Shown here piece after piece: positions 7,446-28,025 of a stretch of 32,000 nt of DNA. Source of the stretch: Nostoc punctiforme PCC 73102. GTDB lineage: Bacteria > Cyanobacteriota > Cyanobacteriia > Cyanobacteriales > Nostocaceae. Numbering within the stretch: the first letter of the stretch is position 1; each line of letters starts with the position of its first letter. The notes below the pieces were generated by a model. That model ran no database searches. It saw only the letters and a list, made by a program, of their open reading frames with translations, and was not told the origin of the DNA. A program made the translations under genes and the position numbers. The stretch is from positions 3,180,001-3,212,000 of the forward strand of contig NC_010628.1 of NCBI RefSeq assembly GCF_000020025.1. The letters run 5' to 3'.

Positions 7446-9317
7446 TCAATTCAACCCCAATTCTTCTTTCAATGCCACCGGGATATTAACTGCTGTCTCT
7501 AATCCCCGCACACCTTCCCACTGCTGTTTTTTACCCCAGGTCATTTTTTCCATATTGGCATCGCTGAGATCTGCACCACTGAGGATGGCGTAACTTAAGT
7601 TACTGTGGCTGAGATTCGCGCCATTGAGGATCGCACCACTCAGATTACTGCCACTGAGGTTAGCACTGTTAAGGTTGGCATAGCTGAAGTCTGTACCGAA
7701 AAGGATCGCGTCGGTGAGGTCGGCACCACTGAGGTCGGCTTCGCTGAGAATCACCCCACTGAGGTCAGCTTCGTTGAGGCTTACCCGACTCAGGTCTACG
7801 CCGCTAAGGTCTGCGCCTAAGAACATTGCACCGTTAAGTCTTGCATTGTTAAGTTTGGCACCGTTAAGTTTGGCATAGCTAAGGTCAGCAGCCATGAGGA
7901 TGGCATCACTAAGGTTGGTGCTGAAAAGAATTGTATCGCTGAGGTTAGTACCGTTGAGGATGGCGTGACTTAAATCAGCACCACTGAGGTCGGCGCGGCA
8001 GAGGTCAGCATGGTTAAGGCTGACGTTGCTGAGGTTGGCTTCACTTAGATTCGCACCAAAAAGGATAGCGTTGCTGAGGTCGGCTCGGCTGAAATTGGTG
8101 CTGCTGAGGTCGGCGCGGCTGAGGTTGGTGTTGCTGAGGTCGGCGCGGTTGAGGTTGGTGCTGCTGAGGTCGGCGCGATTCAGGTCGGCGCGGCTAAGGT
8201 TGGCACGGCTAAGGTTAGCACCACTAAGGTTAGTGCTGCTGAGGTCGGCACCACTGAGGTTAGCCCCACTGAGGTTAGCACCACTGAGGTTGGCATCGCC
8301 GAAGTTGGCACCGCTAAGGTTGGCACCTATGAAGTTTACACCAGTTAAGTTGGCATCGCCGAGATAGGCAAGGCTGAGGTCAGCACCGCTAAAATCTGCC
8401 CCGGTAAGGTTGGCATCGCCCAAGTAAGCACTACGAAAGTTACCGCCTTTGAGAAATTGCCCGACTATACTGCTAAAGTTGCCAATTTCTAAGGCATCGC
8501 TATAGTTAATGATCCGCAGCAGTTGGGATGTGAAAAAATTGTCTGTATCTGGTTGGGCTGATGGATAGAAGGTAATTTTTTCTTTGAGTTCATCTTGCTC
8601 TTGGGCGTAGCGGTGTAACTCTAACAGTAAAATCAGTACGTTCAATCCTGTATAGATGTCTAACTGTCTCAGCCCGATCGCAATATTTTGAGTTGCTAGC
8701 TTTAATTTTGTTTTCTGAGGCAGGTTATCATCTGGTGTGGCATCAATAAATTCTCCCTGACACCAGCGACGATAAAAATCTTCTAGCCGCCAGAAAAGCA
8801 CTTCTGGGTCAATCTTTTGACTACTCACAACCAATTCTATTATTTGGTTGACTATTTCTGATTTCAGCGCTCTATTGCCTAGTAAATCATAAATCTCTTC
8901 ATGCATCTGGCGATCGCACACTCTTAAGCATAACTCTGATGGTAGCGGGCCCGATATGCGATCGCCTATCTTAGAAGTCAAACTGCTCTTTGATATTGTC
9001 CATTTTTCTAAGCTTTCTTGCAGTCTTTGAGACCATGAATCTTCCTGTAAATTACCTTGAGCAAATTTAACGCTTTTGTTTAGTTCTTTAATACTTTTTC
9101 CTAGAGATAAACCGACTTTAGTTTCCACCAATCTGGTCTTTGGCATCTCTTGTAAGCTTATATCCCTCACATAATTTCTCAGCAGTTGCCAAACTTGAGA
9201 TAAATATGTTGACATTTCTGTGTCCGTTGTTACATTTAAATTACTGTTTTGATAATCTGGAACTAAAATTTTTTCTCTGTTACTTTGTTTATCATTGCCA
9301 AAAATAAATAGTATCAA
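7446..9317 (-). CDS. Pentapeptide-repeat protein with a non-repetitive N-terminal domain
   Basis: 623 aa. About 330 C-terminal residues are uninterrupted A(D/N)LSx pentapeptides. The N-terminal ~290 aa have no motif I recognise. Confidence 0.9.
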   Translation of the reverse strand: MILFIFGNDKQSNREKILVPDYQNSNLNVTTDTEMSTYLSQVWQLLRNYVRDISLQEMPKTRLVETKVGLSLGKSIKELNKSVKFAQGNLQEDSWSQRLQESLEKWTISKSSLTSKIGDRISGPLPSELCLRVCDRQMHEEIYDLLGNRALKSEIVNQIIELVVSSQKIDPEVLFWRLEDFYRRWCQGEFIDATPDDNLPQKTKLKLATQNIAIGLRQLDIYTGLNVLILLLELHRYAQEQDELKEKITFYPSAQPDTDNFFTSQLLRIINYSDALEIGNFSSIVGQFLKGGNFRSAYLGDANLTGADFSGADLSLAYLGDANLTGVNFIGANLSGANFGDANLSGANLSGANLSGADLSSTNLSGANLSRANLSRADLNRADLSSTNLNRADLSNTNLSRADLSSTNFSRADLSNAILFGANLSEANLSNVSLNHADLCRADLSGADLSHAILNGTNLSDTILFSTNLSDAILMAADLSYAKLNGAKLNNARLNGAMFLGADLSGVDLSRVSLNEADLSGVILSEADLSGADLTDAILFGTDFSYANLNSANLSGSNLSGAILNGANLSHSNLSYAILSGADLSDANMEKMTWGKKQQWEGVRGLETAVNIPVALKEELGLN

Positions 9318-12752: not shown

Positions 12753-12780
12753 GTAGAGACGCGATTAATCGCGTCTTTTT
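12753..12780 (+). terminator. Dispersed palindromic element, copy 2, followed by a T-run; likely intrinsic terminator of the metalloprotease gene
   Basis: The sequence reads gtagAGACGCGATTAATCGCGTCTttttt. The 20-bp perfect palindrome at 12757-12776 is directly followed by T5, starting 8 nt past the stop codon. Confidence 0.7.
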
Positions 12781-14250: not shown

Positions 14251-15127
14251 CAGTAACATCTTCATGTGTAGAAACGGGTAATGGCTGTCCAACAAACAAT
14301 AAGCTGCTTTGTTGTAACTTCTCCTCAATTTGCCTTAACATTACTTCTAGCTCCACTCTTGGGCTGGTTTGTAAACCAAGACACTGTGCGATTCCATTTG
14401 CATTTGTACTCCAACGCTTTGTAAGTTGAATACGATAACCTGAAGCTTCAGTAAGCAACTCGTAGGAGTGAAAATGCATAGGATTTCCAAGACGAGCATC
14501 TTGAATATGTTCAAAGGAAAATTCTCGTTGCATGTAATCAATAAGGCAATCTTGAACTACCAAAACAAGATGTTTGCTGAGATGTTCAAACGTGTGAATT
14601 TTGTGATGGAGTTGCATCAAGATTGTCTTTGCAGTCATTTTCCAGTTCATACCAAAACCTTTCCCCGATGCGACATCCACATCTCTTACTGAAACACCAT
14701 GACGCTGGAGAAAACGTTGTCGTTCTGGCCAGACTGTTCCAGTAGTATCAAGAGTTTGCAGTTCAATGCTAATAAAATCGATGACTTTTCCTGAACGTAC
14801 AGAAGCAAGACAGTAATCTATACTACCTCCTGGTACTGCAATTTCAGGAACAATCCGAAGTTCGTTACCAGGCTCATGAAGTGTCAATAAATGAATACAA
14901 TCTGTAAAGATTTGACTACGTTCAAGAAGTCGAAACGGACAGATAATAATATTCCGGGCTTCCCTACCGTAAGAAACTGTACATGAGCCGATAGTAAGAT
15001 CAGGCTCACTTTTCCTATTCTTAAGACATTTGCGAGATAGGAAAGGACAGTTTTGACTAGAGGCAATATCACTCCAGATAAGTGATTGGTTTGTAGGATT
15101 ACCGTACAATTCGACAACTTTAGTCAT
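14240..15127 (-). CDS. Type II restriction endonuclease, NotI family (Cys4 metal site plus PD-(D/E)xK core)
   Basis: CPFLSRKC...GSCTV...ICPFR matches the remembered NotI N-terminal Cys4 cluster (CPFL, C-x-K, G-x-C-x-V, CPxR). IELQTLD matches NotI LEIQTMD. The ATG at 15127 overlaps the methylase stop as ATGA. The track's longer version begins at a GTG at 15142. Confidence 0.75.
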   Translation of the reverse strand: MTKVVELYGNPTNQSLIWSDIASSQNCPFLSRKCLKNRKSEPDLTIGSCTVSYGREARNIIICPFRLLERSQIFTDCIHLLTLHEPGNELRIVPEIAVPGGSIDYCLASVRSGKVIDFISIELQTLDTTGTVWPERQRFLQRHGVSVRDVDVASGKGFGMNWKMTAKTILMQLHHKIHTFEHLSKHLVLVVQDCLIDYMQREFSFEHIQDARLGNPMHFHSYELLTEASGYRIQLTKRWSTNANGIAQCLGLQTSPRVELEVMLRQIEEKLQQSSLLFVGQPLPVSTHEDVTDDS

Positions 15128-16212
15128 AACAGTAGTCCACACCTTTCATGAGCAGCAGTAATGTATTCGCCTGAAATATCAATTCCAATCGAGCTTCGTC
15201 CCAGTTGAAATGCAACCAAATTTGTTGTACCTGTTCCTGTAAATGGGTCTAGTACAACACCAGATTGTGGACAGGTAGCAAGAATCGGAAGTTTACAGAT
15301 ATCTTCAGGGTAGGGTGCAAAATGAAGTTTCCGTTTTTGAGTATCTTCTGGCAAAATATCCCAGACATCGCTAGGTTTACTACCATTTGGGTGATATTTG
15401 AGAAAATAGAAGCCGCGTTCAGTAAGTTCACGCGCTCGTCCAGAAACCTTTGCTGAATCGGAGTGCGTAGTTCGTTGCTGACCACGAATAATCATGCGAA
15501 AGTCAGATAATTTACCTAGTCGCACTTCCTGTAATATTTCACCAAGAGCCTTCAGAGCATTTGTACGTTCTAAATCACTAAGCGCTGTAGATAATTCAAT
15601 TTGCCGACGATAGCGTACACCAGAAACGCCTGTTGCAGAAACTACGGAACCATTGACAACCTTGGCTTGTCTTGGCTTCGAGCGAATTGCATCAACATCG
15701 TAAAAATAGCGGTCTGTCTTTACAAAATGGAAAACAGGTTCATACACATTTCGGAGTTTGTCTTTTGCATTATCAGGTGCGCCTTTTACTTTATTCCAAA
15801 TGACGCTATTGCGAAGAATCCAACCTTGTTTATCGCTCATTGCTAGTGCAACTCGCCAGGGTATACCAATCAGAGATTTACGCTGATATGTATCTCCGAG
15901 ATTTAACCAAAAAGATCCACTGGGTTTAAGAATTCGCTTTACTTCACAGAAGATTCCAAGCAAGTTATTGATATAGTCTTCCCACTTTTCCTCAAGACCA
16001 ATTCCTCCATTAATGTAAGCCCTTTGTCCCCAATAGGGGGGAGATGTGATTACACAATCGATACAATCAGCAGGAAATAACTTTAGTAGGGCATAACTGT
16101 CAGCCTGTAAGAACAGTGGTGTGCTGTTTGATGAAGTGAGGTAATCCTTAACAGAACCTATATTCTTCAGAAGCTCGTTCTCCTCAATCATCGGAACACC
16201 TAGCGAATTCAT
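15124..16212 (-). CDS. Beta-class N4-cytosine/N6-adenine DNA methyltransferase (PF01555-type), SPPY variant
   Basis: 362 aa. Motif IV (TSPPYWGQR) lies near the N-terminus and AdoMet motif I (LDPFTGTGTT) near the C-terminus, which is the beta permutation. It is adjacent to the endonuclease. Confidence 0.9.
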   Translation of the reverse strand: MNSLGVPMIEENELLKNIGSVKDYLTSSNSTPLFLQADSYALLKLFPADCIDCVITSPPYWGQRAYINGGIGLEEKWEDYINNLLGIFCEVKRILKPSGSFWLNLGDTYQRKSLIGIPWRVALAMSDKQGWILRNSVIWNKVKGAPDNAKDKLRNVYEPVFHFVKTDRYFYDVDAIRSKPRQAKVVNGSVVSATGVSGVRYRRQIELSTALSDLERTNALKALGEILQEVRLGKLSDFRMIIRGQQRTTHSDSAKVSGRARELTERGFYFLKYHPNGSKPSDVWDILPEDTQKRKLHFAPYPEDICKLPILATCPQSGVVLDPFTGTGTTNLVAFQLGRSSIGIDISGEYITAAHERCGLLL

Positions 16213-16216
16213 CCTA

Positions 16217-17425
16217 TTACTTTACTTGAATTTGAAGGAGCTGTTGCTTTAATGATTCGCCTGTCAGCCTTTGCAAAACTTGCTTCAATACCATTACCGT
16301 CCAATCTATATCAGCTTCAGTGCTATCACGCCCCAATGTGATGCGAATTCCACCCAAGGCGGCTTTTTCGGAATAACCCATTGCTAACAATATTGGGCTA
16401 GGACTAAGTTTACCACTGTGACAGGCAGCACCAGCACTGATGCCGATGCCAGCAAGGTTTAGCTGTCGTACCAAGGCTTTACCGCTAAGTTTTTTCCCGT
16501 CGGCGTTTTCTAAGCACATACTGACATGGTGAGGTAAACGATCGCAGCCATCCCCTGTAGGAATTAAACCAGGAATCTCAGCTAATTGGGCAAAGGCGCG
16601 ATCGCGTAACTCAATTAATCGTGGTGTTTCTATAGCCAATTCTTGCGCTGCTAATTCTGCTGCTACACCAAATCCGGCAATTATCGGTACTGCTTGCGTA
16701 CCAGAACGCAGCCCCATTTCTTGCCCACCACCACTCAGTAAGGGCATCAATTCCACACCAGGACGCACATACAACGCCCCTGCACCTTGCGGCCCATATA
16801 TTTTATGACTAGAAAGGCTAAGTAAATCTACGTCTAGTTGTTGCACATCTATGGGTAAACGTCCCGCAGCTTGCACCGCATCTGTATGGAACAAAGTACC
16901 ATGCGATGGCTCCGCTCGCCGCAGGCATCGCACAATCTTACCCAGTTCTGCGATCGGTTGCACTGTCCCTACTTCACTTTGACCATAAATTATGGAAACT
17001 AAAACTGTGTTATGTCGCAACGCAGCCTTTAAATCTAGGGGATTGACTCTACCTTTAATATCTACAGACAAGCGCGTAACTTCCCAACCCCACATTTCTA
17101 GCAACTTTACTGTTTCCGAAATTGCGGAATGCTCGACGCTGGAAATAATTAGATGTTGAGGAACAGCATACAACCGAGCCACACCCATGATCGCTAAATT
17201 ATTTGCCTCAGTGCCACCAGAGGTAAAAACGATTGATTCAGGATTGGCAGCGTTAATTAAACTAGCAACTTGAACTCTGGCTTGTTCAACAACCGTTGCA
17301 GCCCGTTGTCCCCACTCATGTAAGCTGGAAGGATTGCCCCACTGTTGAGTCAGGACTGTTTGTATAACTGCGATCGCTTCTTTTCGAGTGGGAGTAGTAG
17401 CGCTGTAATCTAGATAAATTTGCAT
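16217..17425 (-). CDS. Class I (NifS/IscS-like) cysteine desulfurase
   Basis: 402 aa. It has the PLD-lysine context SSHKIYGPQGAGALY (PLP-binding lysine), the catalytic-loop cysteine in SAGAACHSG, and the N-terminal IYLDYSATTP. Confidence 0.92.
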   Translation of the reverse strand: MQIYLDYSATTPTRKEAIAVIQTVLTQQWGNPSSLHEWGQRAATVVEQARVQVASLINAANPESIVFTSGGTEANNLAIMGVARLYAVPQHLIISSVEHSAISETVKLLEMWGWEVTRLSVDIKGRVNPLDLKAALRHNTVLVSIIYGQSEVGTVQPIAELGKIVRCLRRAEPSHGTLFHTDAVQAAGRLPIDVQQLDVDLLSLSSHKIYGPQGAGALYVRPGVELMPLLSGGGQEMGLRSGTQAVPIIAGFGVAAELAAQELAIETPRLIELRDRAFAQLAEIPGLIPTGDGCDRLPHHVSMCLENADGKKLSGKALVRQLNLAGIGISAGAACHSGKLSPSPILLAMGYSEKAALGGIRITLGRDSTEADIDWTVMVLKQVLQRLTGESLKQQLLQIQVK

Positions 17426-17643
17426 ATAGCCGATAATGGTGAGAACACACTTTGGTAATAAGCTGGTGATCTTTTCAGAAGATGCAGTTTACGTGGATAA
17501 ATCCTGAAAAAAATCTTGGTAATTCTGCATCTAGGAGTGGATTTTTCCCTTTGTTTGGAAAGTTATTTTTCTAATTAATTTAGAACACAAAATTTTGGGA
17601 ATGATAAATCTGTCCACTCCCAATCCACTTTTAACAGATTACA

Positions 17644-18711
17644 GTGCAACTTATCTCTAGACAAAGATATTTTTCATATATCTTTTTACTGATATTCTCC
17701 CTCGCTGGTTGTCAACGAGTCCAGTCTTTCAATCAGCGTCCAGCACCTTTACCACAAGACCCTTTAGTTCAAGTTTACTTTAACCATTCTGAGTCTTCAG
17801 AATACAAAGAAGCTTACCGTCAGCAAACTCGCTTGGGGGATGATTTAGAAAAAGAAATTGTCAATGCTATTACGCACGCTAAATCTACGATTGATGTGGC
17901 GGTGCAAGAATTACGTTTACCCAAAGTTGCCCAAGCACTGGTTGATAGACAAAAAGCTGGGGTAAAAGTCAGGATAATTTTAGAAAATACCTACAGCAGA
18001 CCTTGGAGTAGTTTAACATCTGCTGAAGTAAGTAAGTTAGATAAAAGGGAACAAGAACGCTACAACGAATTTCGCAAATTTATCGATATTAACCAAGATA
18101 ATCAACTCAGCCCAGCAGAAATCAATCAAAGAGATGCTTTAATAATTTTGCAGAATGCTAAAATTCCCTGGATAGACGATCGAGCAGATGGTTCAGCAGG
18201 TAGCAGCTTGATGCACCACAAATTTGTGATTGTAGATAATCGCATTGTCATTATCACTTCGGCCAATTTTACTTTAAGTGATACTTATGGTGATTTCACA
18301 AATTCCAATACTTTAGGCAATGCCAATAACTTATTGGAGATTGACAGCCCAGAATTAGCATCTTTATTTACAGAAGAGTTTAATATTATGTGGGGAGATG
18401 GGCCAGGAGGTAAGCCAGATAGTCGATTTGGGTTAGAAAAACCGATAAGATCGCCTAAAAAAATTACATTAAATCAAACTACAATTACTGTGCAATTTTC
18501 ACCAACTTCTCCGACTGAACCCTGGAGTAATAGTAGTAATGGTTTAATTGGTAAAACTTTAGATTCAGCAACCAAATCTGTTGATATGGCGTTATTTGTC
18601 CTTTCCGATCAGCGACTTGCTAATATCTTAGAAAATCGCCATCAACAAAATGTACAAATTCGCGCTTTAATTGAACCACAATTTGCATATCGTCCCTACA
18701 AGGACGGTTAA
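17644..18711 (+). CDS. Phospholipase D/HKD-superfamily lipoprotein, apparently 3'-truncated (second HKD motif missing)
   Basis: 355 aa with a GTG start and a lipobox (LAGC). The first HKD motif is HHKFVIVDNRIVIITSANFT. The second lobe begins (ATKSVDMALFVLSDQRLANILE...VQIRALIE mirrors AKSTIDVAVQELRLPKVAQALV...VKVRIILE), but the ORF ends about 12 aa later. Confidence 0.8.
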   Translation: MQLISRQRYFSYIFLLIFSLAGCQRVQSFNQRPAPLPQDPLVQVYFNHSESSEYKEAYRQQTRLGDDLEKEIVNAITHAKSTIDVAVQELRLPKVAQALVDRQKAGVKVRIILENTYSRPWSSLTSAEVSKLDKREQERYNEFRKFIDINQDNQLSPAEINQRDALIILQNAKIPWIDDRADGSAGSSLMHHKFVIVDNRIVIITSANFTLSDTYGDFTNSNTLGNANNLLEIDSPELASLFTEEFNIMWGDGPGGKPDSRFGLEKPIRSPKKITLNQTTITVQFSPTSPTEPWSNSSNGLIGKTLDSATKSVDMALFVLSDQRLANILENRHQQNVQIRALIEPQFAYRPYKDG

Positions 18712-18722
18712 GGCGGCAAATC

Positions 18723-18795
18723 AATGAAGGAAGCAGGAAGACGAAAGAAGGATGAAGTTAAGTCATCCCTCTTCCTACGAACTTCTTCCTTCATT
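18723..18795. repeat. MITE-like purine/pyrimidine hairpin element, copy A (11-bp terminal inverted repeats AATGAAGGAAG/CTTCCTTCATT)
   Basis: Read directly. The internal sequence gaaggatgaagtt...tcatccctcttcctacgaacttc is shared with copy B at 26690-26808. The right terminus contains the stop codon of the XRE gene. Confidence 0.7.
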
Positions 18796-19264
18796 CTTTT
18801 TCAACCCGCGTGGCGATCGCCCTTAGTAAATCCGCCAAATCAACCTGAGACATCAACTCAAGGTGGAAGGATACCCCTTCACCTTTGACACCATTGAGGG
18901 AAACTTTAGGTTGGGATAACCGGGCAATGATGTGCTGTGCCACCCTTGCGGCTTCTCTATCTGGCAATTGATCCACTACTGGAATTACGTCTTCAGCAAA
19001 CTTGTACTCTCTCACTGGTTGCGGCGCATTCTCACTGGCGCAAATGGCTATTAGTTCATCTCTGGTATAACCTAAGTGCGGCGCTAGCTTCTCAAGGGTT
19101 TTAAGTTCTGGCTCTTTCACCTCACCTTTTAAAATTCGCTCAATAGCTGGAGGTGATAAACCGACTTTTTTAGCAAAAGCCCTTTTTGATAGATGCCCTC
19201 TTGCCTTCTCAATAATTTCTGCCAGTTTTTCTATGCCCTCGTAGGTGTACACAGTTTTTGCCAT
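18791..19264 (-). CDS. XRE-family helix-turn-helix regulator (CI-like repressor candidate)
   Basis: 157 aa. The HTH segment LSKRAFAKKVGLSPPAIERILKGE is present. The gene is divergent from the rightward gene block. Confidence 0.85.
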   Translation of the reverse strand: MAKTVYTYEGIEKLAEIIEKARGHLSKRAFAKKVGLSPPAIERILKGEVKEPELKTLEKLAPHLGYTRDELIAICASENAPQPVREYKFAEDVIPVVDQLPDREAARVAQHIIARLSQPKVSLNGVKGEGVSFHLELMSQVDLADLLRAIATRVEKE

Positions 19265-20280: not shown

Positions 20281-20604
20281 GTGTCCAATATCACGATTTT
20301 ATCTGGTTCTGAATTAGATAAAAAGCACCAGCTAGAGCAATCAATATTAGAGGGCATTGAAGCGGGTAAAAAAGGCTTTCAGCAAGCCGCCCAAGCTTTA
20401 TTAAGAATTGATGAACTTGCACTATGGAGGGGCGAGGCAGTTTCATTTGATGCCTATCGCCAAAAATTCAAGGCGGTGCTAGAAGATTTAGATATCACAG
20501 ACAGACACTTAAACAGGTTACTTGCTGCTGAGAAGTGTGTACAAATGTTAAGACCAATTGGTCTTAACATTTGTACACACAAAGAAGTCATATCCGACCG
20601 TTGA
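20281..20604 (+). CDS. N-terminal part of a ParB/KorB-like DNA-binding protein (possibly split by a frameshift)
   Basis: GTG start 7 nt after AAGGAGAG. The pattern ...SFDAYRQKFKAVLEDLDITDRHLNRLLAAEKCVQMLRPIG continues logically into the next ORF in another frame. Confidence 0.6.
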   Translation: MSNITILSGSELDKKHQLEQSILEGIEAGKKGFQQAAQALLRIDELALWRGEAVSFDAYRQKFKAVLEDLDITDRHLNRLLAAEKCVQMLRPIGLNICTHKEVISDR

Positions 20605-21179: not shown

Positions 21180-21508
21180 AATATACCAATTTACCCCAAC
21201 CAATTCCAAAACGAATATTGGGGATAGCTATTAACCGTCAACCTGGGGCGACTGGGCTTTGGGTAACGAGTAAGTACGATGTCTGGCATCTGCCAAACGG
21301 ATTGATATTCAAGCTAGGCGATCCCCTAAGAGTGAGTTGGTTCAAAGAAGGTAGAGAAGCGACAAGGGAAGAAGTACTTGAATCAATCAACAGTGGCTAC
21401 CCAATCCTTCTAGAAGCCGCTCAAATCGATGGTGCTGGGGCTGTTAAGAAATTGGAAGAAATGCGCGATCGGGCTTTGGAATTATTACCAGTGACGGTGA
21501 CGGTATGA
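21176..21508 (+). CDS. Hypothetical protein (110 aa)
   Basis: ATGA overlaps occur at both ends, indicating translational coupling within the operon. Confidence 0.65.
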   Translation: MKYTNLPQPIPKRILGIAINRQPGATGLWVTSKYDVWHLPNGLIFKLGDPLRVSWFKEGREATREEVLESINSGYPILLEAAQIDGAGAVKKLEEMRDRALELLPVTVTV

Positions 21509-22653
21509 GAGAAAGCTGTATATCGCACAAACCCAAATCACTGCTACTGGTTATCCGTGAAGACTATTTTAGGTTAGCAAAGTGTGACAAAGTACTATCC
21601 GCTTTACTTTCAGTTTTTGAATATTGGGCCAATGGTGAAATCTCCAAAAATCCCTCTTTAGCAGAAGAATCAATAGATTTAGGGATTCGCACAATATCAG
21701 AAATTGAAAAACTGACCTTGTGGATTGCGACAGACAAACAGATCCGCACCAAGCTTAAGGAGCTTGAAGAATTAGGCTTCGTATCATCTTGTAAAGGAGT
21801 AGGCAATCACACCGCATACAGCCTTCACGTTCCCTACTTGCAGCAAGCCTTAGATGCACTTGATTGGTCTCTATCTTTATCAGAATTACGAAAACAAAAC
21901 CCTTCTCGATGCACCCATACCTCCGGTTTATTAACCGAACCCCCTCCGGTTAATAAACCGCACCCCTCCGGTTTATTAACCGAACCCCCTCCGGTTAATA
22001 AACCGCACCCCTCCGGTTTATTAACCGAACCACTATATATAGAAGAATTTAAGAATTTAATTAAAGAATGTGTAAGAAGCGCTGACGCACAAAACACACA
22101 CACTGACGACGAGGACGAGGTTGATTTTGCTAGTGCAACCTCTCGTAGAGAAGAAAACCAATCACCTGTAGATCCTTTTCTTGCCACCAATCCCAAAGAA
22201 GAACCTGCGCTTTTGCCCCACGTCTTACCGCTTGAATCGAATATTCCGGCGAATGAGAATAACAATCATTTTCATAAAACAGCAGATAGAGTGCGATCGC
22301 AGTGGGAGCAAACAGGGGTATTGCCAAAAATCCCAATGGAAATAGATGCATGGGCGGCGATTGATTTAGGGCAAGAGGTGATTAATGCTTACCGTTTGAG
22401 TGGCAGGATAACCACTATCAAGCGGGGTGATATTGTGCCTGAATTTGCCTTATACGTGAGCGGTCAAAACAAAGGTAAAGATGTTGATTACGGCTACGCA
22501 TATATCAAAAAACTGGAATTAGATCCGCGCCAATGGGAGACTCTAGCCGCATTGGTTTTGAAGTGGCAAACATCACATCAGACGGGTAATCGCAGTATCA
22601 GCATTGTCCGTGAGGTCAAACGTAGACCGCTAATTGAGCTTAATTTGAGGTAA
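21505..22653 (+). CDS. Replication-initiator-like protein (lambda O-like organisation) containing an internal iteron array
   Basis: 382 aa. The N-terminal winged-helix-like segment is ISEIEKLTLWIATDKQIRTKLKELEELGFVS. A Pro-rich repeated linker (SGLLTEPPPVNKPHP, about 2.4 copies) is encoded by the iterons. The gene is followed by a loader-like gene. Confidence 0.6.
   Translation: MRESCISHKPKSLLLVIREDYFRLAKCDKVLSALLSVFEYWANGEISKNPSLAEESIDLGIRTISEIEKLTLWIATDKQIRTKLKELEELGFVSSCKGVGNHTAYSLHVPYLQQALDALDWSLSLSELRKQNPSRCTHTSGLLTEPPPVNKPHPSGLLTEPPPVNKPHPSGLLTEPLYIEEFKNLIKECVRSADAQNTHTDDEDEVDFASATSRREENQSPVDPFLATNPKEEPALLPHVLPLESNIPANENNNHFHKTADRVRSQWEQTGVLPKIPMEIDAWAAIDLGQEVINAYRLSGRITTIKRGDIVPEFALYVSGQNKGKDVDYGYAYIKKLELDPRQWETLAALVLKWQTSHQTGNRSISIVREVKRRPLIELNLR
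21921..22075. repeat. Candidate replication origin: 45-bp tandem repeat (2.4 copies) carrying five CGGTT-N4-AACCG palindromes, then an AT-rich tract
   Basis: Perfect 45-mers lie at 21921-21965 and 21966-22010, with a partial copy to 22031. The palindromes start at 21924, 21947, 21969, 21992 and 22014 (spacing 22-23 bp), with cores alternating TATT/AATA. 22032-22075 is actatatatagaagaatttaagaatttaattaaagaatgtgtaag. Confidence 0.6.
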
Positions 22654-24422: not shown

Positions 24423-27400
24423 AATTGGCTCAATCGCCTCTGGTATGGGAATGCACCTGCATGGATTGAAGCAAATTGGTGGTGTCCCTGTGTGGGCAAT
24501 CGAATGTGATGAGGCGATCGCCCACTGCTACCACCAAAATCACAAAAGCGAAGTCTACATCAAAAAAGTTCAAGACGTTGCCCCATCTGATTTGGCAGAT
24601 ATTGATTTGTTAATAACTACCCTCAGCTGTAAAAATGCATCCATTGCCAACGCTAACCGGGGCGAATTGCCAGAAGATGCAGCAGCCGGGATAGCCACCG
24701 GTGACATCATCAAAGCCTTAAAGCCCCAGTACTTCATGCTTGAGAACGTCTGGGGATACCGCAAATTCGAGTCTTTTAAACAAATTCAAGCGGCGCTGGA
24801 TGAGTGTGGCTACTATTCCCGCTTTTACAAATTCAATTGCCGTAATTGGGGTATTGCTCAAAGCCGCGATCGCCTTTATCTTTTGGCAAGCAAGGATGGT
24901 ACTTTCGCTGATCCTGTACCTCCACAAATCTCAGAGGTTGGGTGGTATGAGGTGATCGCTGACTTGATTGATGAGCTACCAGAAACAACACTTGCACCTT
25001 GGCAGTTGCGTAAGTTTCCAGAGTTAGCCCGTGAAGCTAATTCTTGTTTAATCCCAGACCACTCTAATTGGACAAATTTGATTCCTCAGTCTGCCCCTTG
25101 CTCAACAGTTAGAGAAGGACACCAAACCTTTAAAGCTTTAATCAAACGTGCCGGTGGGGGAAGAGATAGCGATCGCCTTTACCAAAGTGATGAACCATCT
25201 TTCACTATCCGAGCGATGGGTAGAAAGTCTGATAATCACTCTCGCATAGCCGACGCGATCGTGGGTGACAGAATTGTTGCGGTGACTCCTCGCGCTTGTC
25301 TGCGGTTTTTTGGCGATAAAGAAACAGCAGATAATATCTGGCTTCCTCCTACCAAGTCGCTAGCGAATGAGGTAGTAGGCAATGGCGCTAGTTGGGTGAT
25401 GTTCAAAAGCCTATTTGAGCATTTATCCCAGTCTGTGCCGACGTTGCTTTCCATCGAATCAAACTCCTTGAGGGATATTTCGACTTCGCTCAATACAAGT
25501 GGTGGCGAAATGGTTGAGAACTTTTTTCAGATAGGCGATCGCGTTGAACTTGTATGCGATGTTTTATTTGGTGATATAAACCTCAAAGCTAAAAACCCCA
25601 ATGCCAAACTAGCCATTGCTGGAGAGTGCGCCGAAGTATGCGGCGTTCGAGGTACAAGACTTGCTCTTAGTGTTGGCGGTGAGCCATTTGATTGTCCCAT
25701 TAGGTTAGTGAAAAAAAATTTAGATGTTCCTACCGCCGATACCGCAATGTTTACGTCAGAGCAGGGTATAGGGACTCAGGTAGAGAATAATTCTCATTCT
25801 GAACCTTGCCCCCCTCCACCCAAAGAATCAGATAAGTGGTATACACCACCCAATATTCAGGATTTACTCACGCAGGTACTCGGCGCAGTTGACCTTGACC
25901 CTTGCGCCGATGACGGTAAACATATCAAAGCGGCAAACCATTACACCGCATCTGATGACGGACTTGCTCAGGAGTGGTACGGACGGGTGTTTATGAACCC
26001 TCCCTATTCATGCCCTGGCAAGTGGATGGCGAAATTGCAAGCAGAGATAGAGGCTGGAAGGGTAACGGAGGCGATCGCCCTGGTTCCGGCAGCGACAGAT
26101 ACCAATTGGTTGCACCCGCTCCTTGACACTCAACCCATCTGCTTTTGGAAAGGCCGCATCAAATTTTTAGATACGAACTATCAACCAAAACTCTCGGCTA
26201 GGCAATCACACTGCCTGCTGTATTGGGGTACTAATGCACAGAAATTCAAACAAGTTTTTGACGAAGTTGGAACTGTGAAAAATATAAGCCAGTCTGCTCT
26301 TCTCTGCGAGACGCTGCGCGATGGGGTTTCCCCAAGTGGAAGAACTGGCGTTGAATCTGAAACTGCTTGGAATCCTGCTGATTTTGGAGAAGTACCACGC
26401 ATTGCTGATGGCGATCAACTAACGATTTTTTATGACACCCATGAGCCACCAGACCCCGACAATTACCCGTCTATCGCGGCGTATGAACAGGCATGGCAGG
26501 AATGGGAGAAAAAGCTGACTAGGAGCAACGTAAAACAGGGAGTTCACGTTGTTGACCAGCTTGGATCGTTGGGGATTATCAAAGAAAACTTGGGGTTTGG
26601 GTTTGTCGTTGATTGGTTGGGTGACGCTGTTGCTTACAACTGGGAGCGAGACAGCGATCGCATTGATACTTTTAAGATCGCAAATCAAGGAAGGATGAAG
26701 GAGGAAGGAGGAAGAAGTGATGAAGTTGAATCTGAATCATCATCCCTCTTCCCGACGCTCGCAGACTCGCTACCGCTACGCTATCTCCCCTCTTCCTGCG
26801 AACTTCCCAATCAAGTTTTTAAAAACAAGGAGCAAAATACTGTGACAACTTTCCAATTTTCTGGCACACAGGCGATCGCCTCTCAAATTGCCCAATTACA
26901 AGAGCAATTGAACAAACTCACCGCCTCTTTAGAGCCATACCAAGAGTGCGAACAAAAAGCTGAGGAATTGCGCCAAGAAGTGGCGCAATTTGGGCGGGAA
27001 ATGGTAGATAAGGGAATTCCCCAGAATGACATTTTAAGTTGGGCGCGATCGCTTTATAGCGCGGCTAGTGGTGTGGAGTTAGTGGAGAGTGATAGTAGTG
27101 TAATTGCTGCTCAAAATGAAATTATTAGTGAATTGAAAGCCGGAAATCATGTATTGCGTGAGCAATATAGCGAAGTCATAAGACAAAGAGATTTACTAAT
27201 AAAGCAGGTTGAAGACAATGATAATGATATGGATGTGCAACTAGCGGAACAACAATTAATACCAGAAGTGGAAGCTTCAAACAAAGAACTTACCGAAGGC
27301 GTAGCAAGCTTTACTGAAGGCGATCGCGTTTGTGTAAATGCTATACACGAATTAGAACACTTACTCGAAAGACTTGGTACAGTAGTTGGAATAAAAGGTA

Positions 27401-27948: not shown

Positions 27949-27951
27949 ACC

Positions 27952-28003
27952 AGAAGGAAGAAGGAAGAATTCTTCTCTACCTTCTTCTCTCTTCCTTCTT
28001 CCT
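27952..28003. repeat. Polypurine/polypyrimidine hairpin, copy C, 4 nt after the fusion-gene stop; terminator candidate
   Basis: An 18-nt pure purine arm (agaaggaagaaggaagaa) is followed by a ~33-nt pyrimidine arm. It contains the 12-bp palindrome GAAGAATTCTTC (27964-27975) plus 8-9 bp outer pairings in several registers. Confidence 0.6.
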
Positions 28004-28025
28004 TTGTTAAATCAAAGGGGATATT

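Follow-up and report, generated by a model that had tools for sequence, protein, structure and literature searches.

Two nested small repeats as the probable source of an in-frame insertion in a phage-type methyltransferase gene of Nostoc punctiforme

We analysed a stretch of 32,000 nucleotides from Nostoc punctiforme PCC 73102 (contig NC_010628.1, positions 3,180,001 to 3,212,000; hereafter the window), in which the open reading frame (ORF) of a methyltransferase gene, located in a phage-like element, contains 126 extra bases. The original prediction, made from the sequence alone, had described them as one 119-bp unit resembling a MITE (miniature inverted-repeat transposable element). Our results suggest instead a composite, formed by two successive insertions of small repeats into a variable linker of this prophage gene, a reading to which we assign a probability of about 0.6. 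In the first step, a hairpin of ~75 nt, consisting of a degenerate GGAAGGA array and its complement, would have entered the linker after codon Q761 and duplicated AATCAAG. In the second, a 32-nt repeat of the Nostocaceae would have inserted into the pyrimidine arm of the hairpin, duplicating CCCTCTTCC and adding 44 nt. The hairpin step alone (+82 nt) would shift the frame and the second insertion (+44 nt) would restore it. Because the sum, 126, is a multiple of three and the sole stop-free frame of the composite is the one in use, the gene would read through and gain a 42-residue spacer. Feature coordinates are collected in Table 1. We refer to the hairpin inside the gene as copy B and to two similar hairpins of the window as copies A and C.

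Table 1. Parts of the insertion, its host ORF and the related hairpins, in window coordinates
Feature	Position	Strand	Remarks
Host ORF, 1180 aa	24406..27948	+	C5 cytosine methylase aa 5-303, Dam-type N6-adenine methylase aa 473-602, long C-terminal region
Left 7-nt direct repeat AATCAAG	26683..26689	+	native coding sequence: codons N760-Q761 and G of the following codon
Outer element, purine arm and loop	26690..26743	+	degenerate GGAAGGA heptamer array
First CCCTCTTCC copy (9-nt duplication flanking the nested element)	26744..26752	+
Nested small dispersed repeat	26753..26787	+	32-nt core GACGCTCGCAGACTCGCTACCGCTACGCTATC at 26754-26785, 2 mismatches to the family consensus
Second CCCTCTTCC copy	26788..26796	+
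Rest of the pyrimidine arm of the outer element, TGCGAACTTCCC	26797..26808	+
Right 7-nt direct repeat AATCAAG	26809..26815	+
Shine-Dalgarno-like AAGGAG (26827-26832), then GTG (26842-26844, V813)	26827..26844	+	start role inferred
Copy A, GA/CT heptamer hairpin	18701..18800	+	arms 18718-18755 and 18763-18800; left flank common with B 18704-18724
Copy C, third GA/CT heptamer hairpin	27951..28005	+	directly 3' of the methyltransferase ORF stop codon

What the original prediction said of the insertion as such held up. Both copies of AATCAAG were found, with 119 nt between them; the insert plus one repeat copy amounts to 126 nt, or 42 codons without a stop, in frame with the host ORF; the claimed translation, GRMKEEGGRSDEVESESSSLFPTLADSLPLRYLPSSCELPNQ, is correct and includes a GRSDEVESESSSLFPTLADSLPLR stretch; and excision of the insert restores a seamless reading. 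The surrounding gene content likewise bore out the location of the host gene within a mobile, phage-like element. The 126 nt have a single open frame among the three forward ones, and composition alone does not account for the open reading. Read-through needs both the right length and the right phase, and an insert landing at random in this orientation would combine them with a probability of ~1 in 9. The peptide is probably a disordered and neutral spacer of low complexity, tolerated between modules. The exact 1180-aa protein was present in 60 blocks of the assembly collection, with 58 contigs in its cluster entry, and a search of its 90% cluster for an empty-site allele returned only an identical truncated copy. 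When the gene was compared by BLAST with a phage collection, the only match was one of 206 nt (69%) to the C5 methylase of an Aphanizomenon phage, and no Rfam family was found at the gathering threshold anywhere in the window.

The second step is well supported. In copy B the core is flanked by two copies of CCCTCTTCC, whereas copy A has a single CCCTCTTCC (18767-18775) and no core. With positions 26753-26796 (44 nt) removed, B aligns with 18704-18805 of copy A with a score of 102.5, compared to ~33 for shuffled sequences; the two are ~80% identical over the aligned stretch, and the alignment has several gaps. The kinship with the sequence at 18723-18795, claimed earlier, is therefore real, but it becomes clean only once these 44 nt are taken out. 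By this alignment copy A shows the empty site for the inner element, and the presence of the core in B together with its absence from A is evidence of mobility.

The inner core belongs to a family of its own. A BLAST search of plasmids with the insertion region gave 27 records, of which 19 from Nostoc and four from Trichormus all matched query positions 78-118 only (window ~26747-26787); the remaining four, non-cyanobacterial, were weak matches, two of them to other parts of the query. Core matches in plasmid records were thus all from Nostoc or Trichormus. A metagenome scan for the 20-nt core centre gave at least 120 loci. Against the family consensus gACGCTCGcgGACTCGCTAcCGCTACGCTAaC, built from 109 unique instances, the window copy has 2/32 mismatches, a match for which the number expected by chance is 0. 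Direct repeats of at least 5 nt abut the core in 28 of 65 full-core instances (shuffled flank pairings: mean 4.3, maximum 10) and reach 14 nt when an offset of a few bases is permitted at either end. Flanking direct repeats of variable length, 5-14 nt, are a trait of the 32-nt core family. Its surroundings are also distinctive: a period of 7 is the best lag in 29/65 left and 25/65 right flanks, strong heptamer arrays accompany 14% of core instances versus 0.6% of random sites, and the units seen include TAATTCG, GGAAGTC, AACCTTC and CCAAAAT. Insertions of this repeat would accordingly leave 5-14-nt flanking repeats and favour heptamer arrays, and no transposase is implicated. In four plasmid-record cases the core lies under annotated coding sequences, for example as two copies within one hypothetical gene of L010.

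Small dispersed repeats (SDRs) were reportedly described in Nostoc punctiforme by Elhai et al. in 2008. They measure 21-27 nt, compared with the ~32-nt conserved stretch of the present core. The inner core is SDR-like: it is short and highly conserved and has many dispersed copies. It has filled and empty versions (B versus A) and a preferred sequence context, and it lacks an associated transposase, all of which add to the likeness; its significant matches in the plasmid records were all in Nostocaceae. Text searches of the literature for strings of the core sequence found nothing. The SDR work of Elhai et al. (2008) is cited in PMC3116915, PMC4390886 and PMC5861425. According to published papers, SDR5 inserts inside HIP1, whereas the 32-nt core sits in heptamer arrays.

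For the first step, the entry of the hairpin, the evidence is one direct repeat and the absence of the hairpin from distant homologues, from which we infer an insertion. A 7-mer direct repeat around a segment of 70-125 nt, within the slack allowed, has a chance origin of ~1.2% in this window. A homologue search with the C-terminal 561 aa gave 30 relatives; those with a name come mostly from Nostoc, with Fischerella and Aulosira in addition. In the best BLASTP alignments, the closest homologues that cover the insertion module are 53% identical to the query fragment. Five of these relatives have the same flanking modules, including the upstream module ...NLGFGFVVDWL...YNWERD... (P0001, P0003, P0015, P0017 and P0020; alignment A1), and the 42 residues are absent from all five. 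The window sequence RIDTFKIANQ aligns with RINTFSIAPQ/R in the homologues, and its codons ACT TTT AAG ATC GCA AAT CAA correspond to ACT TTC TCA ATT GCA CCT CGT in L133 and to ACC TTC TCA ATT GCT CCA CAG in L132. Because of this codon-level match, the sequence through the left AATCAA can be taken as native gene. The protein alignment, joined at the DNA level by L132 and L133, upholds the view that the 42 residues are an insertion and not a conserved native linker, as none of the flank-sharing homologues has them.

The site itself is a variable inter-domain linker, as had been supposed. Between IAP(Q/R) and the conserved Met before FQFS, it ranges from ~15 aa to well over 100 aa in the five relatives; a length of about 15-16 aa was noted in the comparison with homologues that included L132 and L133. 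Two homologues have in-frame heptamer arrays in this linker, (CCAATGC)x8 in L255 (2442-2609) and (CCGATGC)x4 in L256 (8634-8765), which are read as QCPMPNA-type peptide repeats. Because of these arrays, the methylase linker appears to be a place that tolerates small repeats repeatedly. The same arrays favour a different origin, in which the hairpin grew in place by heptamer slippage from the linker and an inverted duplication, with no mobile step; the purine arm, a period-7 array in phase with the left AATCAAG, fits that origin too. However, slippage yields tandem arrays, not a complementary arm with the starting heptamer at its far end. Furthermore, the loop and pyrimidine arm of B match those of copy A and of a hairpin in L257, with a loosely conserved centre GAYGA...TCATCCYTCTTCC, which argues for common descent. 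Growth in place is very improbable in our judgement, and we rank it last among the alternatives.

Hairpins of the kind proposed for the first step are normally intergenic in this group of Nostoc phage-like elements. Copy A lies between a truncated PLD-like ORF and a convergent helix-turn-helix (HTH) repressor gene, at the left end of the phage-like element. Similar hairpins are found in L254 (2165-2260), between a C5-methylase stop and a Dam start, and in an intergenic region of L257 (15990-16075). On these sequences, we regard the outer element as one of a loosely defined class of heptamer hairpins, whose usual place is at the ends of genes; B is the sole hairpin of the class found inside an ORF. 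Tandem Repeats Finder detected period 7 in the purine arm of B (26688-26714, AGGAAGG, 3.9 copies, 90% matches), in copy A (18726-18757, 4.6 copies) and in copy C (27952-27969 and 27976-28004). RNA fold z-scores were -3.48 for A, -3.18 for C, -0.50 for the whole of B and -1.68 for B without the inner 44 nt. A and C thus fold far more stably than shuffled sequences, whereas B as a whole does not exceed them, and the earlier description as a hairpin is weak for B. A simple terminator scanner (loops of at most 8) flagged none of the three; the only structure it called in the vicinity, 27999-28020, is a different, small stem-loop that overlaps just the last bases of C. TTCTTTTTC comes after copy A, and T5 lies six bases downstream of B.

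Comparable hairpins numbered four in 917 kb of Nostoc-rich DNA versus three in this 32-kb window, and none of A, B and C had a convincing homologue in the same 917 kb by BLAST, the best alignment, with C, covering 29 nt at E 0.002. An exact scan of 185,579 species-representative genomes for GATGAAGT..TCATCCCTCTTCC, the core shared by A and B, returned five non-cyanobacterial chance matches and no cyanobacterium; the source genome was assumed to be included with only the window masked, and the pattern is too strict for relatives of the L257 type. BLAST of copy A against plasmids found nothing, the low-complexity filter having probably masked the query. In viral contigs, an exact scan for the pyrimidine-arm core gave no match, and one for the left junction GCAAATCAANGAAGGA gave at least 120 matches, all unrelated and non-cyanobacterial; those listed resemble ribosome-binding-site regions just upstream of ATG, and none has HIP1.

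At two related loci, L254 (2117-2260) and L132 (3001-3100), a purine/pyrimidine hairpin comes directly after the stop of a C5-methylase gene, and the called start of a methylase gene (Dam-type or other) is extended upstream across it. The N-termini predicted there (e.g. GGSEGRRKEEGGRRTKEKE...SSPFPLPSS) are probably translated hairpin and not real protein.

Tandem heptanucleotide repeats of the STRR type were reportedly described in heterocystous cyanobacteria by Mazel et al. in 1990. The arms of the outer element resemble them in being period-7 arrays, in a member of the Nostocales and usually intergenic. The outer array differs in that it is paired with its complement as a hairpin and has one copy inside an ORF. 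The GGAAGGA unit is not known to be among the classical STRR units.

We next consider the MITE label. In a one-step insertion, a pre-formed 119-bp MITE-like element, core included, would have arrived with a 7-bp target-site duplication. This would explain why an exact 7-nt direct repeat brackets the whole composite, and, the total length being a multiple of three, no frameshifted intermediate would be required. Yet the related copy A is without the inner core and has a single CCCTCTTCC, the core is an independent family in many other contexts, and the genome scan described above, made with an exact pattern and with the source genome assumed included, contained no donor copy. In addition, B has neither terminal inverted repeats (its ends GGAAGGATG... 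and ...GAACTTCCC pair over 5 nt only) nor a link to an insertion sequence (IS), a match to which was not searched, and the other hairpins have no duplication. We consider a one-step origin unlikely, and place it first among the alternatives.

The unit is better described as a period-7 hairpin with a nested 32-nt repeat that has its own 9-nt duplication. The MITE label fails because there are no terminal inverted repeats, no family-wide target duplication and no conserved multi-copy family; the single 7-bp flanking repeat is the only MITE feature that B possesses. Copy A does have 11-nt inverted ends, but these belong to the heptamer hairpin itself and extend over the HTH gene's stop codon. No fixed-length duplication surrounds every copy: only B is flanked (7 nt), and a flanking duplication was seen by eye in none of the other four hairpins (A, C and those of L254 and L257), so target-site duplication is not a property of the class. 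Neither the exact scan of 185,579 genomes nor the 917-kb BLAST revealed a multi-copy family with defined ends. The possibility raised earlier that AATCAAG is an internal part of the repeat was decided neither way, as only copy A shares the string, and on one side only. A bona fide small element of this kind is Nezha (Zhou et al. 2008), for which PMC3184786 gives terminal inverted repeats that match ISNpu3, family-wide direct repeats, a highly stable fold, and both filled and empty sites among close relatives. The outer element is similarly small, non-coding and capable of forming a hairpin, and B has a short direct repeat and is visible as an insertion against homologues. In contrast, the IS-matching ends, family-wide direct repeats, stability and close empty sites of Nezha were not seen for the outer element.

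The region 3' of the insertion bears on the order of events. If the inner 44 nt are removed from the present sequence, the methylase ORF stops after 790 aa at TAA 26820-26822, four bases before AAGGAG and 19 before GTG 26842, which itself comes nine bases after AAGGAG. At the position of this GTG (V813), at least 90% of homologues have a Met, and some homologues begin there (P0007). The C-terminal 368-aa module may also be translated alone from this possible internal start, and a two-gene intermediate, later re-fused by the 44-nt insertion, is plausible from the reading frames.

The same features can be turned into an explanation without any hairpin insertion. B would then be a former intergenic spacer of the terminator type, fused into the ORF by loss of a stop that the nested 44-nt insertion itself could have removed, and the AATCAAG repeat would be coincidental. 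Hairpins of the class lie at gene ends or between genes both in the window (A, C) and at related loci (L254, L257); B is followed by T5, AAGGAG and a GTG aligned with a highly conserved Met, at which some homologues start; and the upstream ORF, deprived of the inner 44 nt, ends shortly before that codon. However, most homologues, including all five with the NLGFGFVVDWL module, are fused ORFs that are hairpin-free at this point, so the fusion is likely ancestral, and the 7-nt repeat would have to be a chance event of ~1%. We therefore hold a former spacer to be a rather unlikely origin, second among the alternatives.

Copies A and B share sequence beyond the hairpin. The original prediction had cautioned that a similar string precedes copy A; this proved correct, and the likeness extends to 21 nt, the left flanks of A and B (ACGGTTAAGGCGGCAAATCAA and ACTTTTAAGATCGCAAATCAA) being identical at 16 of 21 positions. 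Within the window, TTAAGNNNGCAAATCAA occurs exactly only in these two flanks. The flank cannot have arrived in B with the hairpin because it encodes TFKIANQ, homologous to TFSIAPQ. Either copy A was copied from the B region at a time when the 32-nt repeat was not yet there, or the process of insertion prefers a target of extended length. The left end of the phage-like element lies only 3-4 nt outside copy A with its shared flank, and the terminal ~100 nt of the element, as integrated, may duplicate the methylase linker and hairpin. The right flanks of A and B are also alike (TTTTTnAA), but this likeness was rejected as part of a copied unit, since in A this stretch belongs to the HTH gene as its native 3' end, with an orthologous counterpart in L257 that has no hairpin there. 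A further reading takes hairpin and flank as recombination or boundary sequence of the element, with B as a second, internal copy; a separate one has the 44-nt insertion rejoin a gene that the hairpin had split. We rate readings of this kind as unlikely, third in our ranking of the alternatives. B was also considered as an attP-like site; its position in the middle of the element means that it is not the attP used.

Several points weigh against the proposed two-step history. The 7-nt repeat has a chance origin of ~1%, and none of the other four hairpins inspected has a duplication. The 16/21 likeness of the left flanks of A and B, which is native coding sequence in B, is as it stands not what an insertion with precise ends would predict. 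No orthologue was found that is close enough to offer an empty or an outer-only site at the DNA level, and the recorded alleles of the gene are identical. Moreover, the length of the intermediate, 82 nt, is uncertain because of heptamer slippage and the several gaps in the A/B alignment.

The left end of the phage-like element was located by comparison with public assemblies. The PLD-like ORF at 17644-18711 (355 aa) is the truncated 5' part of a gene, with the junction at 18700/18701. Most of its 120 listed orthologues, from Nostoc and related genera, are proteins of 543 aa with a PLD domain and a ComEA-like helix-hairpin-helix C-terminus. Positions 1-4057 of contig L258 equal window positions 14644-18700, with 100.000% identity over 4057 nt, and from 4058 onwards L258 carries the remainder of the uninterrupted gene; the window parts from L258 exactly at 18700/18701. 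By this comparison the phage-like element interrupts the PLD/ComEA-like gene, and public reads (5 contigs) hold a cured or excised version whose flank is identical. Elements that interrupt genes in heterocystous cyanobacteria, one of them located in a phospholipase D gene, were surveyed by Hilton et al. (2016; PMC4874684).

To the right of the junction, the element contains a cI/Cro-type HTH gene, unknown genes with iteron-like repeats, the methylase gene, a 905-aa protein matching phrog_15468 (E 1.7e-169) and at least 9 kb more, including a 2085-aa ORF. The HTH gene lies 90 nt from the left end, and no recombinase gene is present there. In the related loci L256 and L257, the counterparts of these early genes have a gene for an XisA/XisC-type recombinase at a distance of 0.5-1.2 kb; in L257 it is separated from the HTH orthologue by ~1.1 kb. 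The right end of the element was sought by extension of Logan contigs (L261) and was not reached by ~41.4 kb in window coordinates. P0153, the best match to the C-terminal half of the interrupted gene, was rejected as the right junction, as its neighbouring genes are also in pieces, apparently through frameshifts.

Other repeats were observed in the window and at related loci. Within an ORF at 21505-22653, positions 21920-22054 hold a tandem 22/23-nt (45-nt) repeat, CCTCCGGTTTATTAACCGAACC, with a short palindrome in each unit; it has the look of intragenic iterons, such as are known from phage replication origins. In L261, one Logan assembly of this sequence, the repeat region is shorter by 44-45 nt, through either copy-number variation or assembly collapse. 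A perfect 48-nt palindrome (GTGTGTACAAATGTTAAGACCAAT / ATTGGTCTTAACATTTGTACACAC) is located at 20535-20580, and the Logan contig behind L001 and L261 starts within it, at about window position 20551. The 24-nt sequence AGACGCGATTAATCGCGTCTCTAC occurs at 985-1008 and, in inverted orientation, at 12753-12776, 11.7 kb apart; it is palindrome-based and resembles GTAG/CGTC-tagged REP-type repeats, and a hairpin of GAGTTAG heptamers (920-983) lies directly upstream of the first copy. On the minus strand, a 623-aa ORF at 7446-9317 has a strong 15-nt periodicity at ~7560-8430, the pattern expected of a pentapeptide-repeat protein. In L256, a contig of Nostoc sp. CHAB 5836, positions 15383-15479 are a run of N between two called genes, either a gap or a masked stretch.

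Fusions of small repeats with genes have precedents. PMC3184786 refers to in-frame fusions of Rickettsia palindromic elements with genes (Ogata et al. 2000) and to MITE-ORF fusions in Anabaena (Wolk et al. 2010; Fewer et al. 2011). As in these cases, a small palindromic repeat is read as an extra peptide in a surface or linker region and the gene stays intact. Theirs are single, well-defined families, whereas the present case has one repeat type nested in another, unrelated one, and only their summed length preserves the frame.

The original prediction had also called the insertion recent and datable. We found no support for this, because B has diverged from A, its hairpin is degraded and was invaded a second time, and it is the sole recorded allele; the recorded alleles are identical and the nearest homologues are 53% identical. 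On present data, the insertion cannot be used as a dated marker, and it reveals no new kind of element. The 126-base in-frame insertion is genuine, though nothing out of the ordinary for genomes of this group. Its value is that of a worked example of the tiny repeats of Nostoc: a 32-nt core inside another repeat, with a 9-nt duplication and an empty site 8 kb away, the two repeats jointly adding a 42-aa spacer to a protein that is not broken. Should the gene indeed have been re-fused by the inner insertion, two selfish repeats would first have split and then rejoined one gene. Models of how such repeats move are constrained by the 9-nt footprint, together with the surplus of 5-14-nt flanking repeats across the family and its preference for heptamer arrays.

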